Source: Escherichia coli
GTDB lineage: Bacteria > Pseudomonadota > Gammaproteobacteria > Enterobacterales > Enterobacteriaceae
DNA length: 64,000 bases
Strand: one strand, 5' to 3'
Assembly: GCF_003018235.1 (NCBI RefSeq)
Contig: NZ_CP027437.1
Shown: piece by piece, positions 2,489 through 51,459 of the stretch
How the letters are laid out: the number at the start of each line of letters is the position of its first letter
Numbering within the stretch: the first letter of the stretch is position 1
Program-made: the position numbers and the translations under genes
The notes under the pieces: generated by a model
The model's input: the letters and a program-made list of their open reading frames with translations, nothing else
The model's database searches: none
Told to the model about the DNA's origin: nothing

Positions 2489-4153
2489 ATGTGTTCAATT
2501 TTTGGCGTATTCGATATCAAAACAGACGCAGTTGAGCTGCGTAAGAAAGCACTCGAGCTGTCACGCCTGATGCGTCATCGTGGCCCGGACTGGTCCGGTA
2601 TTTATGCCAGCGATAACGCCATTCTCGCCCACGAACGTCTGTCCATTGTTGACGTTAACGCGGGGGCGCAACCTCTCTACAACCAACAAAAAACTCATGT
2701 GCTGGCGGTAAACGGTGAAATCTACAACCACCAGGCACTGCGCGCCGAATATGGCGATCGTTATCAGTTCCAGACCGGGTCTGACTGTGAAGTGATCCTC
2801 GCGCTGTATCAGGAAAAAGGGCCGGAATTTCTTGACGACTTGCAGGGCATGTTTGCCTTTGCCCTGTACGACAGCGAAAAAGATGCCTACCTGATTGGTC
2901 GCGACCATCTGGGGATCATCCCACTGTATATGGGCTATGACGAACATGGTCAGCTGTATGTGGCCTCAGAAATGAAAGCCCTGGTGCCGGTATGCCGCAC
3001 GATTAAAGAGTTCCCGGCGGGGAGCTATTTGTGGAGTCAGGACGGCGAAATCCGTTCTTATTATCACCGCAACTGGTTCGACTTTGATGCAGTGAAAGAT
3101 AACGTGACCGACAAAAACGAGCTGCGTCAGGCACTGGAAGATTCCGTTAAAAGCCATCTGATGTCTGATGTGCCTTACGGTGTGCTGCTTTCTGGTGGTC
3201 TGGATTCCTCAATTATTTCCGCGATCACCAAGAAATACGCCGCCCGTCGCGTGGAAGATCAGGAACGTTCTGAAGCCTGGTGGCCGCAGTTACACTCCTT
3301 TGCTGTAGGTCTGCCGGGTTCACCAGATCTGAAAGCAGCCCAGGAAGTGGCAAACCATCTGGGTACGGTGCATCACGAAATTCACTTCACTGTACAGGAA
3401 GGTCTGGACGCCATCCGCGACGTGATTTACCACATCGAAACCTATGATGTGACCACTATTCGCGCTTCAACACCGATGTATTTAATGTCGCGTAAGATCA
3501 AAGCGATGGGCATTAAAATGGTGCTGTCCGGTGAAGGTTCTGATGAAGTGTTTGGCGGTTATCTTTACTTCCACAAAGCACCGAATGCCAAAGAACTGCA
3601 TGAAGAGACGGTGCGTAAACTGCTGGCCCTGCATATGTATGACTGCGCGCGTGCCAACAAAGCGATGTCAGCCTGGGGCGTGGAAGCACGCGTTCCGTTC
3701 CTCGACAAAAAATTCCTTGATGTGGCGATGCGCATTAACCCACAGGATAAAATGTGCGGTAACGGCAAAATGGAAAAACACATCCTGCGTGAATGTTTTG
3801 AAGCATATCTGCCCGCAAGCGTGGCCTGGCGGCAGAAAGAGCAGTTCTCCGATGGCGTCGGTTACAGTTGGATTGACACCCTGAAAGAAGTAGCGGCGCA
3901 GCAGGTTTCTGATCAACAGCTGGAAACTGCCCGCTTCCGCTTCCCGTACAACACGCCGACGTCCAAAGAAGCGTATCTGTACCGGGAGATCTTTGAAGAA
4001 CTGTTCCCGCTTCCGAGCGCCGCTGAGTGCGTGCCGGGCGGCCCTTCCGTCGCGTGTTCTTCCGCTAAAGCGATCGAGTGGGATGAGGCGTTCAAGAAAA
4101 TGGACGATCCGTCTGGTCGTGCGGTTGGTGTTCACCAGTCGGCGTATAAGTAA
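2489..4153 (+). CDS. asnB: Asparagine synthetase B (glutamine-hydrolysing)
   Basis: 554-aa protein starting MCSIFGVFD (N-terminal Cys nucleophile), SGGLDSS PP-loop; the ORF-track start at 2408 is a TTG extension; GGAGAAGG SD precedes ATG 2489. Confidence 0.95.
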   Translation: MCSIFGVFDIKTDAVELRKKALELSRLMRHRGPDWSGIYASDNAILAHERLSIVDVNAGAQPLYNQQKTHVLAVNGEIYNHQALRAEYGDRYQFQTGSDCEVILALYQEKGPEFLDDLQGMFAFALYDSEKDAYLIGRDHLGIIPLYMGYDEHGQLYVASEMKALVPVCRTIKEFPAGSYLWSQDGEIRSYYHRNWFDFDAVKDNVTDKNELRQALEDSVKSHLMSDVPYGVLLSGGLDSSIISAITKKYAARRVEDQERSEAWWPQLHSFAVGLPGSPDLKAAQEVANHLGTVHHEIHFTVQEGLDAIRDVIYHIETYDVTTIRASTPMYLMSRKIKAMGIKMVLSGEGSDEVFGGYLYFHKAPNAKELHEETVRKLLALHMYDCARANKAMSAWGVEARVPFLDKKFLDVAMRINPQDKMCGNGKMEKHILRECFEAYLPASVAWRQKEQFSDGVGYSWIDTLKEVAAQQVSDQQLETARFRFPYNTPTSKEAYLYREIFEELFPLPSAAECVPGGPSVACSSAKAIEWDEAFKKMDDPSGRAVGVHQSAYK

Positions 4154-47542: not shown

Positions 47543-48349
47543 ATGAAAGCATTCTGGCGTAACGCCGCGTTGCTCGCGGTTTCTCTGCTTCCCTTCTCTT
47601 CTGCCAACGCCGTGGCGTTGCAGGCAAAACAGTATGGCGATTTTGATCGCTATGTCCTGGCCCTCTCCTGGCAAACCGGATTTTGCCAGAGTCAACACGA
47701 TCGAAATCGTAACGAACGAGATGAATGTCGCCTGCAAACCGAAACGACCAACAAAGCTGATTTTCTGACCGTACATGGTCTGTGGCCAGGATTGCCTAAA
47801 TCGGTTGCTGCCCGTGGTGTTGATGAACGCCGCTGGATGCGCTTCGGTTGCGCTACCCGCCCAATCCCGAATCTACCAGAAGCGCGCGCCAGCCGAATGT
47901 GTTCATCGCCGGAAACTGGGTTATCGCTGGAAACGGCAGCTAAACTAAGTGAAGTCATGCCAGGAGCTGGCGGACGTTCCTGCCTGGAACGCTACGAATA
48001 TGCCAAACACGGTGCCTGCTTTGGTTTTGATCCAGACGCATACTTCGGCACGATGGTACGCCTGAATCAAGAAATTAAAGAGAGCGAAGCCGGAAAATTC
48101 CTTGCGGATAATTACGGTAAAACAGTGAGCCGCCGTGACTTTGACGCCGCCTTTGCCAAAAGCTGGGGAAAAGAGAACGTGAAAGCAGTTAAGCTAACGT
48201 GCCAGGGTAACCCTGCGTATTTGACTGAAATTCAGATCTCGATCAAAGCTGACGCCATCAACGCTCCGCTTTCTGCCAACTCATTCTTGCCACAACCACA
48301 CCCAGGCAACTGTGGCAAAACCTTTGTGATTGATAAAGCAGGTTATTAA
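47543..48349 (+). CDS. rna: Periplasmic ribonuclease I (RNase T2 family)
   Basis: 268-aa protein MKAFWRNAALLAVSLLPFSSANA (signal peptide); T2 motifs HGLWP and KHGAC. Confidence 0.93.
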   Translation: MKAFWRNAALLAVSLLPFSSANAVALQAKQYGDFDRYVLALSWQTGFCQSQHDRNRNERDECRLQTETTNKADFLTVHGLWPGLPKSVAARGVDERRWMRFGCATRPIPNLPEARASRMCSSPETGLSLETAAKLSEVMPGAGGRSCLERYEYAKHGACFGFDPDAYFGTMVRLNQEIKESEAGKFLADNYGKTVSRRDFDAAFAKSWGKENVKAVKLTCQGNPAYLTEIQISIKADAINAPLSANSFLPQPHPGNCGKTFVIDKAGY

Positions 48350-48496
48350 TCCTCTGATTTACAAAACACGCTAATTCGTCTTCCATAAACCATGACGATT
48401 AAGATTTATACATAATGCGCTACATTGAGGAATTCCCTGAATGTGACGCAAATCACTTCAAAGAGTGAGCAACAGTCAGTATCATCATGTGAGTTA

Positions 48497-48530
48497 AACC
48501 CTCGCCGCCTGACGGTGAGGGTTTTCTTTT
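48497..48530 (+). terminator. Hairpin plus T-run in the rna-rnk spacer
   Basis: AACCCTCGCC-GCCTGAC-GGTGAGGGTT followed by TTCTTTTG, about 50 bp upstream of rnk ATG. Confidence 0.55.
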
Positions 48531-48578
48531 GGGTATGTTTATCTGCGACACTCGCAGTACCGACGACATGGAGTAAAA

Positions 48579-48989
48579 ATGTCCAGACCAACTATCATCA
48601 TTAACGACCTGGATGCCGAACGCATCGATATTCTGCTGGAGCAACCCGCCTATGCTGGTTTGCCAATCGCCGACGCGTTAAACGCAGAGTTGGATCGCGC
48701 CCAAATGTGTTCGCCAGAAGAGATGCCACACGACGTGGTGACAATGAACAGCCGGGTTAAATTCCGCAATCTTAGCGATGGCGAAGTGCGTGTGCGCACG
48801 CTGGTGTATCCGGCAAAAATGACCGACAGCAATACTCAGCTTTCCGTTATGGCTCCGGTAGGTGCCGCACTGCTGGGGCTGCGCGTTGGCGATTCCATTC
48901 ACTGGGAACTTCCGGGCGGCGTTGCAACCCACCTTGAAGTACTGGAACTCGAATACCAGCCAGAAGCTGCTGGCGACTACCTGCTTTAA
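48579..48989 (+). CDS. rnk: Regulator of nucleoside diphosphate kinase (GreA/GreB-like)
   Basis: 136-aa [25 protein letters not shown]... Confidence 0.92.
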
Positions 48990-49024
48990 TCCCATCTGCA
49001 CAAGCGATAACTCGCTTTGCCCAG

Positions 49025-49048
49025 AGGATGCACTCGCATCCTCTTTCC
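49025..49048 (+). terminator. Intrinsic terminator after rnk
   Basis: GAGGATGC-ACTC-GCATCCTC followed by TTTCC. Confidence 0.55.
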
Positions 49049-49131
49049 GCTCAAATATCAACCAGATTTATCATTTTGCTCTTAAGCGCAGCATTCTAAT
49101 CTGAACTGGTTATTCATCTGCGGAACCTCAT

Positions 49132-49221
49132 ATGAGCGAAGCTCTCGGTATCACTGCATTTTATATATTCATAGCAGCAATTATTGTTGCTGCAGTGCTA
49201 TACCTTGAACAACGCTGGTAG
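49132..49221 (+). CDS. Candidate 29-codon hydrophobic small ORF (single predicted TM helix); speculative
   Basis: ATG 49132 to TAG 49219: MSEALGITAFYIFIAAIIVAAVLYLEQRW; weak SD; not in supplied ORF track because under 60 aa. Confidence 0.2.
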   Translation: MSEALGITAFYIFIAAIIVAAVLYLEQRW

Positions 49222-49344
49222 CGCCTGGTTTTATTTATTTTCCAGCTCAATAGCAAATTCAGATCAAATCAGCCTCGCAAATCATAGATTCATAACCAAT
49301 AATGTGCTGTTATGTATACATGCAAAAACAAGGAGAGAATGCTT

Positions 49345-49773
49345 ATGTACAAAACAATCATCATGCCAGTGGATGTTTTCGAAATGGAATTGAGCGACAA
49401 AGCGGTTCGCCACGCTGAATTCCTCGCCCAGGATGACGGAGTTATTCATCTACTTCACGTACTACCGGGGTCAGCCAGCCTGAGCCTGCACCGTTTTGCC
49501 GCTGATGTACGTCGTTTTGAAGAGCATCTGCAACATGAAGCAGAAGAACGTTTGCAAACGATGGTCAGCCACTTCACCATCGATCCTTCCCGCATTAAAC
49601 AACATGTCCGTTTTGGTAGCGTGCGGGATGAAGTCAATGAGTTGGCAGAAGAACTGGGGGCTGATGTTGTCGTTATCGGTTCGCGCAACCCATCGATTTC
49701 GACCCATCTGTTAGGTTCTAACGCCTCAAGCGTTATCCGCCACGCCAATCTGCCGGTGCTGGTTGTGCGTTAA
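49345..49773 (+). CDS. uspG: Universal stress protein G
   Basis: 142-aa UspA-fold protein from [20 protein letters not shown]; AGGAG SD 9 nt upstream. Confidence 0.92.
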
Positions 49774-49787
49774 TTGCCAGAATAAAT

Positions 49788-49828
49788 ATCCCGCCCTGCC
49801 CGGAGCCATCCCGGCGGGGCTTTTTATT
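49788..49828 (+). terminator. Intrinsic terminator after uspG
   Basis: CCCGCC...GGCGGGG hairpin followed by CTTTTTA. Confidence 0.65.
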
Positions 49829-49833
49829 GCCAT

Positions 49834-49863
49834 AAAAAAGCCGCCAGGTTTGACCCCGGCGGC
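49834..49863 (-). terminator. Intrinsic terminator after ahpF (minus strand)
   Basis: GCCGCC...GGCGGC hairpin with T-run on the minus strand. Confidence 0.6.
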
Positions 49864-49893
49864 TAAGCAATTGCAGGTGAATCTTACTTCTTC

Positions 49894-51459
49894 TTATGCA
49901 GTTTTGGTGCGAATCAGGTAGTCAAAAGCACTCAGAGAGGCTTTGGCACCTTCGCCAGTGGCGATGATGATCTGCTTGTACGGAACCGTCGTACAGTCAC
50001 CCGCTGCGAACACGCCTTTCACGTTGGTTTCGCATTTCGCATCAATGATAATCTCGCCCATGCGGTTACGTTCGACTGCGCCTTCGAGCCAGTTGGTGTT
50101 CGGCAGCAGACCAATCTGCACGAAAATACCGGCCAGTTCGATGTTGTGAATATCGCCGCTGACACGATCTCGATATTCCAGACCTACGACTTTGCTACCG
50201 TCGCCTTTCACTTCCGTGGTTTGCGCATTCAGAATAATGTCGACGTTTTTCAGGCTGCGCAGTTTGTCCTGCAGAACCTGGTCGGCTTTCATTTCTGGCG
50301 CAAATTCCAGCAGCGTTACGTGCTCAACGATACCCGCCAGGTCAATTGCCGCTTCCACGCCGGAGTTACCGCCGCCGATAACCGCTACGCGTTTACCTTT
50401 AAACAGCGGGCCGTCGCAGTGCGGGCAGTAGGTCACGCCTTTGGTGCGATACTGATCTTCGCCCGGAACGTTCATGTTGCGCCATTTTGCACCGGTCGCC
50501 ACGATAATGCTGCGTGCTTTCAGTACCGCGCCAGAAGCTGTTTCAATCTGATGCAGGCCACCTTCAACCGCTGCCGGGATCAGTTTGCTGGCGCTCTGGC
50601 TGTCGATCACATCAACGTCGTATTCATCAACGTGAACTTTCAGCGCACCTGCCAGTTTCTGGCCTTCGGTCTTCGGTACAGAAATGTAGTTTTCGATATC
50701 AACGGTATCGAGGATCTGACCACCAAAACGTTCGCCCATCAAACCAGTACGGATACCTTTACGTGCGGAGTAAATTGCTGCCGCTGCACCCGCCGGGCCG
50801 GAACCGACGATTAATACGTCATAAGCATCACGCTTGTTCAGCTCTTCTGCCGCACGTTTTTCCGCGCCAGTATCAATTTTGGCGACGATTTCAGTCAACG
50901 TCATGCGACCCTGACCAAACTCTTTCCCGTTTACGAACACTGCCGGAACGCCCATCACGTTGCGATCGGTGATTTCGTTCTGGAAGGTGCCGCCGTCAAT
51001 TGCAGTGTGCTTGATGCGCGGGTTCAGTACGCTCATCAGATTCAGCGCCTGCACCACATCCGGGCAGTTGTGGCAAGAGAGCGAGTAATAGGTTTCGAAT
51101 TCAAAATCACCGTCAATATGGCGAATCTGCTCCAGCAGAGACTGCGCTTCTTTCGACGGATGACCACCGGTCCACAACAACGCCAGTACCAGCGAGGTAA
51201 ACTCGTGGCCCAGCGGGGAACCTGCAAAACGTGGCCCCTGGTTGGAACCTGGGTTAGTGATCAGGAAAGACGGCTTACGCACCGGCAAGCTGTTATCTTC
51301 TTTAAAGGTGACTTTGTCTGACAGTTCTGCGATTTCAGCCAACAGTTCCTTGATTTCTGCCGATTTAGCGCTGTCATCCAGCGTGGCAATTAACTCAACA
51401 GGCTTGGTCAATTTCTCAAGGTAAGCCTTGAGTTGAGTTTTCATATTTGTGTCGAGCAT
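49894..51459 (-). CDS. ahpF: Alkyl hydroperoxide reductase subunit F
   Basis: 521-aa protein from [17 protein letters not shown]; redox CHNC and CPHC motifs and FAD/NAD Rossmann folds. Confidence 0.95.

Follow-up and report, generated by a model that had tools for sequence, protein, structure and literature searches.

Here we report that a 29-codon open reading frame in the spacer between the rnk and uspG genes of Escherichia coli is yldA, a genuine gene present in single copy that encodes a predicted inner-membrane protein of 29 residues and lies 3' of rnk in many Enterobacteriaceae, and that the analysed locus is a 'short' haplotype of this interval without ybdR; we assign this reading a probability of about 0.85. 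The locus lies within a 64,000-nucleotide stretch of E. coli DNA (the window, to whose first letter all positions refer). By comparison with other enterobacterial genomes we established the identity of yldA, the purifying selection acting on its peptide, the absence of ybdR, and the frequency of this arrangement in the E. coli population. The short haplotype is one of two old haplotypes coexisting in E. coli. Comparison of YldA with the EnvZ-binding small protein YoaI further pointed to a probable distant relationship between the two peptides and provided a tentative model of YldA action.

Results

Organization of the rnk-uspG interval

The region 48579-49773, covering rnk, uspG and the spacer between them, is 100% identical to that of E. 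coli strain ST2747 and was matched in 5422 of 5426 complete E. coli genomes. On its left flank, the rnk gene for the regulator of nucleoside diphosphate kinase occupies 48579-48989 on the plus strand (taken from the list of open reading frames; WP_000089731.1 in the 100%-identical record) and is preceded by the rnk leader RNA RF01771 at 48425-48533 (Rfam, 124.9 bits). On the right flank, the uspG gene for universal stress protein G is annotated at 49345-49773 on the plus strand (WP_000278505.1), with a Shine-Dalgarno sequence, AAGGAG, read from the sequence at 49330-49335 on the same strand. In the list of open reading frames, the uspG frame reaches an upstream ATG at 49312 (153 aa, compared with 142 aa from the annotated start); the start at 49345 is the one that has AAGGAG 5' of it and is kept in all other species.

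The spacer thus spans 355 bp (48990-49344), from the end of the rnk coding sequence at 48989 to the annotated uspG start at 49345, in line with the figure of about 350 bp given in the original prediction. The order of elements in the short haplotype is rnk, a terminator hairpin, yldA, a putative uspG promoter, and uspG. The yldA coding sequence itself (49132-49221, plus strand) consists of 29 codons from ATG 49132 and the stop codon TAG at 49219-49221, exactly as predicted originally, and encodes MSEALGITAFYIFIAAIIVAAVLYLEQRW. It starts 142 bp after the rnk stop codon on the same strand, an arrangement common to 37 loci. No alternative in-frame start besides ATG 49132 was found in the stop-to-stop frame 49105-49218. 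Upstream of the gene, 7 nt 5' of the ATG, we read from the sequence a Shine-Dalgarno-like GGAA (49122-49125, plus strand), which is weak, as had been noted.

Identification of the 29-codon frame as yldA

The list of open reading frames contains several others of 20-30 codons in the same 355 bp, so the presence of such a frame is by itself no more than expected by chance, and it is conservation that distinguishes yldA. In RefSeq the frame is labelled as the small membrane protein YldA (WP_001287361.1; records 97.6-100% identical). The window peptide passes the NCBIfam equivalog model NF041476 with 59 bits against a cutoff of 45 (E-value 3.2e-16), and the match is full-length, with residues 1-29 on profile positions 1-29. 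The Pfam family PF23689 (YldA-like) was not reached by the window allele, which scored 22.9 bits against a gathering threshold of 27; the K-12 allele scored 73.6 bits, and the Pfam model appears to have been built around the K-12 allele class. Pfam-based annotation would consequently miss the YldA allele class of a third of E. coli genomes, and surveys resting on the K-12 sequence will under-count yldA.

The window peptide carries all six residues that are invariant in the family (M1, E3, A21, V22, L25, and E26). The 22 residues 4-25 between the invariant E3 and E26 are uncharged and are followed by a basic/aromatic tail, from which a single transmembrane helix is predicted. The original description of the product as a small single-helix membrane protein therefore holds; the alternative of a type I toxin-like peptide found no support, as discussed below.

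In E. coli K-12, yldA is b4734 (643330-643419), its product is MAEAFYILIGFLIMAAIIVMAVLYLENHS, and it matches both NF041476 and PF23689. Like the window protein, K-12 YldA is 29 aa long, is encoded directly 3' of the rnk terminator, has the same six invariant residues, and exceeds the NCBIfam equivalog cutoff. Only 15 of the 29 residues (52%) are identical between the two, with the N-terminal half of the helix almost wholly replaced and the C-terminal half the same, and with tails that differ (QRW and NHS). The two loci also differ in their neighbours: in K-12, yldA is convergent with ybdR, their stop codons lying 3 nt apart, whereas in the window ybdR is absent and uspG comes next on the same strand. 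Since K-12 has yldA too, adjoining ybdR, the gene is no by-product of a short spacer.

In a published survey of small proteins, K-12 YldA is one of those that a chromosomal SPA tag made detectable in cells grown in rich medium (VanOrsdel et al. 2018, PMC6001520 Table 1). A list of convergent genes with overlapping transcripts, or 'excludons', includes ybdR-yldA (PMC12288877), and a table of genes upregulated by NaF includes yldA (PMC10100675). In the literature searched we found no paper assigning a function to YldA. The evidence for synthesis comes from the K-12 allele, 52% identical to that of the window, and the membrane location is a prediction. With a tagged orthologue in K-12 and, as described next, changes that are confined to third codon positions within Escherichia, the doubt raised originally about whether the frame is translated at all is largely removed, even if its Shine-Dalgarno sequence is weak.

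Purifying selection on the YldA peptide

For a family-wide comparison we used 80 rnk loci from species-representative genomes, in each of which Rnk, YldA, YbdR, UspG, and AhpF were located. A YldA frame follows rnk in 34 of the 80 loci; together with the window, ST2747, and K-12 this makes 37 frames from many enterobacterial genera, encoding 34 distinct peptides. Every one of the 37 is exactly 29 codons long. Among 33-34 distinct orthologues, M1, E3, A21, V22, L25, and E26 are invariant, and I7, A16, V19, L23, and Y24 vary very little; the C-terminal half, AIIVxAVLYLE, is the most constrained part.

Nucleotide differences follow the codon frame. Pairwise differences per site average 0.28, 0.21, and 0.50 at codon positions 1, 2, and 3, respectively, and the pooled pN is 0.24 against a pS of 0.62 (0.125 against 0.55 for codons 15-26). 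Between the window and K-12, pS is 0.80 over the whole gene, and for codons 15-26 it is 0.90 with a pN of 0.09. All six differences between the window and E. albertii yldA fall at third positions, as do all 12 differences of the window-class gene across three other Escherichia species, 11 of them synonymous. The fixed length of 29 codons, the invariant residues, and the third-position bias together identify yldA as a gene under purifying selection, and the frame that had been predicted from one sequence is thus conserved across genera.

Two old haplotypes of the rnk-uspG interval in E. coli

In K-12, yldA and uspG are separated by a 1239-bp ybdR gene on the opposite strand, in agreement with the roughly 1.2-kb gene given in the original prediction. 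Its absence from the window, also claimed there, was borne out by three comparisons. The alignment of the window with K-12 extends to 49050 at 98.7% identity and resumes at 49327 with 97.8%, leaving an unaligned middle of 276 bp in the window (49051-49326, the haplotype-specific block, with breakpoints taken from this alignment) versus 1611 bp in K-12; the same short spacer is therefore not seen in K-12, where ybdR occupies the interval. A tblastn search with K-12 YbdR gave no match in the window region. Likewise, no ybdR remnant was detected in 49222-49344 by blastn-short against 22 ybdR-bearing loci. At the level of blastn, the 276-bp block shares no homology with the 1611-bp K-12 block, in which the K-12-type yldA, ybdR, and the region upstream of uspG are found.

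The 276-bp block was found at 95-100% identity in 1816-1818 of 5426 complete E. coli genomes, including Nissle 1917, ATCC 11775, and an APEC O2:K1:H4 strain, and the K-12 block in 3598-3605 of the 5426, including O157:H7. E. albertii and two further Escherichia species have the short form as well; their spacers measure 353-355 bp, and their YldA peptides match that of the window exactly or almost so. Divergence between the two forms stays elevated over roughly the first 60 bp of uspG (49331-49404 contains 11 mismatches) and then drops to background, so that the divergent block reaches from 49051 to about 49404. Synonymous sites of yldA and of the 5' part of uspG are saturated between the window and K-12, indicating that the two forms parted long ago. 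Each YldA class is more similar to certain Citrobacter sequences (76% and 79% identity) than to the other E. coli class (52%), and a matching uspG upstream sequence travels with each class. A recent import of the K-12 ybdR block was considered and rejected, because K-12 ybdR is about 80% identical to its Salmonella and Citrobacter counterparts, as are the flanking rnk and uspG.

Scoring the contents of the interval across 80 species revealed yldA alone in 21 species, both yldA and ybdR in 12, ybdR alone in 10, and neither gene in 34, the interval not being assessable in the remaining 3. This distribution points to a long-standing site of gene gain and loss. In Enterobacter asburiae TN152 (locus L057, 967-1226) and Lelliottia nimipressuralis 51 (locus L058, 4551-4797), whose short spacers measure 388-399 bp, remnants of the ybdR 3' end follow yldA, which proves that ybdR was lost independently in those lineages. 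The short form of the window may have arisen through an old deletion of ybdR.

A one-off hybrid of both haplotypes was observed in E. coli HH97 (NZ_CP116409; locus L003, 2962-3493). Its first 27 yldA codons are of the K-12 type; about 75 bp of window-type sequence (the yldA 3' end and what lies downstream) come next, followed by codons 67 to 1 of K-12 ybdR with many substitutions to G. The outcome is a 46-aa YldA and a ybdR pseudogene. The junction lies at an 18/21 microhomology with window positions 49283-49303, and assembly errors may contribute to this structure. The same 21 positions were also considered as decayed ybdR codons 58-64, as 18 of the 21 bases equal K-12 and the segment aligns with the HH97 hybrid. 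This reading was rejected, since the segment lines up with the promoter region of uspG in K-12, Citrobacter, and Enterobacter, and blastn-short of the spacer against all ybdR-bearing loci gave no ybdR match.

Candidate transcription signals in the spacer

Downstream of rnk, a terminator-like hairpin, AGAGGATGC-ACTC-GCATCCTCT followed by TTCCG, occupies 49023-49044 on the plus strand, with a predicted folding energy of -15.5 kcal/mol (z = -5.0). It also marks the left edge of the haplotype-specific block, as homology to K-12 ends at 49050, six bases past the hairpin. The palindrome, GAGGATGC-N4-GCATCCTC, is conserved in its sequence, and not merely in its structure, in 69 of the 84 rnk loci, which represent many genera, with a variable loop and a short T tract; an ordinary intrinsic terminator would not need so much sequence constraint. 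Because its T tract is short, the rnk hairpin failed the terminator scan, and read-through into yldA is possible.

The promoter scan found no consensus sigma-70 promoter in the spacer. A -10-like TATCAT (49069-49074) and the GGAA at 49122-49125 are conserved within the Escherichia/Citrobacter allele class, and an alignment of the upstream regions of 18 species shows a GG kept across genera some 8-11 nt 5' of the yldA ATG. A fold scan detected no stable hairpin after the yldA stop codon. Further downstream, a putative uspG promoter at 49274-49303 (plus strand), composed of a -35-like CTCGCA (49274-49279), an 18-nt spacer, and a -10-like AATAAT (49298-49303), was proposed from a by-eye alignment with cAGACA-18 nt-TATAAT of K-12 and the corresponding CTGACA... 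of Citrobacter and Enterobacter; it did not pass the consensus promoter scan. In blastn-short searches the matches to Citrobacter covered only the promoter-proximal part of the spacer. An Rfam match to snoZ223 on the minus strand (49044-49126) reached 27 bits, short of its gathering score of 45, and we discounted it as a chance hit.

Taken together with the lack of a consensus promoter of its own in the scan, these features suggest that yldA may be transcribed partly through read-through of the weak rnk terminator and, in the short haplotype, may be co-transcribed with uspG.

Probable relationship of YldA to YoaI

Among 18950 NCBIfam models, the only other significant match of the window peptide was to the YoaI model NF041475 (E-value 4e-7, 30 bits). 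The score is below the equivalog cutoff of 45 bits, and YldA is therefore not a YoaI orthologue. From 1.84 billion representative proteins we collected orthologues of YoaI and built an alignment of 17, in which M1, E8, L10, I12, F16, S26, V27, and E31 are invariant. Its comparison by hhalign with the alignment of 33 YldA sequences gave a probability of 96.7% (E-value 3.7e-10) over 27 columns, pairing YldA E3 with YoaI E8, V22 with V27, and E26 with E31. Against the YldA profile YoaI scored 18.9 bits, which was reached by none of 5000 fully shuffled YoaI sequences (best 12.6 bits) and by none of 5000 sequences in which only the helix core was shuffled (best 18.7 bits). Conversely, when the YoaI profile was run on 1845 six-frame peptides of the 64-kb window, it retrieved only the yldA frame (E-value 4.7e-6; next best 3.4).

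YoaI (b1788), a 34-aa inner-membrane protein, resembles YldA in having a single helix of 22 uncharged residues bounded by two invariant glutamates and followed by R/K. The E8...E31 of YoaI and the E3...E26 of YldA define a common E-x22-E frame, and the small residues A21 (YldA) and S26 (YoaI) align. YoaI differs in its N-terminal MNDQM, which YldA lacks, and in its locus; control by PhoB, a response to Mg2+, and EnvZ binding belong to the YoaI side of the comparison. We consider it probable that the two peptides are homologous, their similarity covering 27 mostly hydrophobic alignment columns; a score of 30 bits below a cutoff of 45, the narrow distance between 18.7 bits for the best core shuffle and 18.9 bits for YoaI, and the hydrophobic nature of these columns make the homology probable rather than proven. 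A shared function does not follow from it. The papers that could be searched make no mention of a relationship between YldA and YoaI.

The K-12 yoaI and yldA genes are both arranged tail-to-tail with a larger convergent gene (yeaK-yoaI and ybdR-yldA), with 0-3 nt between the ends of the coding sequences; this common layout may be a coincidence.

Discussion

The interpretation of the frame as yldA has to be weighed against explanations in which the peptide is a toxin or has no function, and against a trivial origin of the short spacer. Type I toxin peptides such as Ibs, Ldr, TisB, ShoB, and Hok are, like YldA, small, hydrophobic, single-helix products of intergenic genes, and the weak Shine-Dalgarno sequence of yldA would suit a peptide that damages membranes and is kept from being translated by an antisense RNA. 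Such loci are patchy in distribution and often multi-copy, whereas yldA is single-copy, syntenic across many genera, and under strong purifying selection. The listing of the K-12 ybdR-yldA pair among overlapping-transcript 'excludons' (PMC12288877) would fit this view, but this convergent partner is absent altogether from the window. Nor did the window reveal another candidate: no Rfam antitoxin or small RNA family reached its threshold in 48000-50500, PADLOC returned no match to a defence system, and the minus strand of the spacer has no promoter-like site and folds no better than shuffled sequences. Overexpression of the related YoaI lengthens the lag phase, which could be taken as a sign of toxicity; K-12 YldA, on the other hand, accumulates to a detectable level during growth in rich medium. 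Lacking a cognate antisense RNA in these searches, unduplicated, conserved in a syntenic position, and with a protein detectable in growing cells, yldA differs from type I toxin genes, and we regard this reading as very unlikely.

We give similarly little weight to the view that the frame is a chance open reading frame or a purely regulatory element, such as an upstream or leader frame of uspG or a part of the rnk 3' untranslated region, with a functionless peptide. The presence of other frames of 20-30 codons in the spacer and the weak ribosome-binding sequence would fit this view, as would the position of yldA in the short form, where it is co-directional with uspG, 123 bp 5' of it, and not set apart by a convincing terminator. 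What is conserved, however, is the amino-acid sequence and not merely an open frame, as shown by six invariant residues, a pN much lower than pS, and a bias of changes toward third positions. Moreover, yldA is no general uspG leader, since 12 species and two thirds of E. coli genomes have an oppositely oriented ybdR between the two genes, and neither rnk nor uspG needs yldA in cis, because 34 species have rnk-uspG without it. As for the missing ybdR, independent recent deletions of this gene do exist (a partial one in HH97, and those of TN152 and L. nimipressuralis 51, which keep 3'-end remnants), and one could ask if the window shows another strain-specific deletion or an assembly artefact. 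This is refuted by the spread of the same 276-bp block, at 95-100% identity, through 1816 complete E. coli genomes and by the 353-355-bp spacers of E. albertii and two other Escherichia species; the window in addition contains no detectable ybdR remnant, and the synonymous sites of yldA and of the uspG 5' part inside the block are saturated relative to K-12.

The preferred reading therefore remains that of yldA as a conserved small-protein gene within an old short haplotype. As such the observation is real but ordinary: yldA was already named, annotated, and experimentally detected, the lack of ybdR is a common variant of E. coli, visible as presence or absence in thousands of public genomes, and the original observation adds nothing new. 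A modest new lead is the coexistence in E. coli of two deeply divergent YldA allele classes, with only 52% identity between them.

A second lead comes from YoaI, which binds and activates the sensor kinase EnvZ and requires for this E31 in its cytoplasmic tail (PMC11429745). By analogy with YoaI, the N-terminus of YldA would face the periplasm and its C-terminus the cytoplasm, and, given the alignment and the common E-x22-E frame, YldA may bind a larger membrane protein; this partner in the inner membrane, possibly a sensor kinase, would be contacted through the helix and the juxtamembrane E26. That YldA is a distant YoaI paralogue with a YoaI-like mechanism is a possibility to which we give clearly less than even odds. 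More speculative still is the proposal that YldA and YoaI form one unrecognised family of 'E-x22-E' inner-membrane peptides of about 30 residues, in which YldA, like YoaI, would modulate a sensor kinase or another membrane partner through its invariant juxtamembrane glutamate and the two allele classes could differ in affinity or specificity. The YldA-YoaI link, itself a modest new lead, gives the uncharacterised YldA a testable mechanism, namely the binding of a partner via E26.
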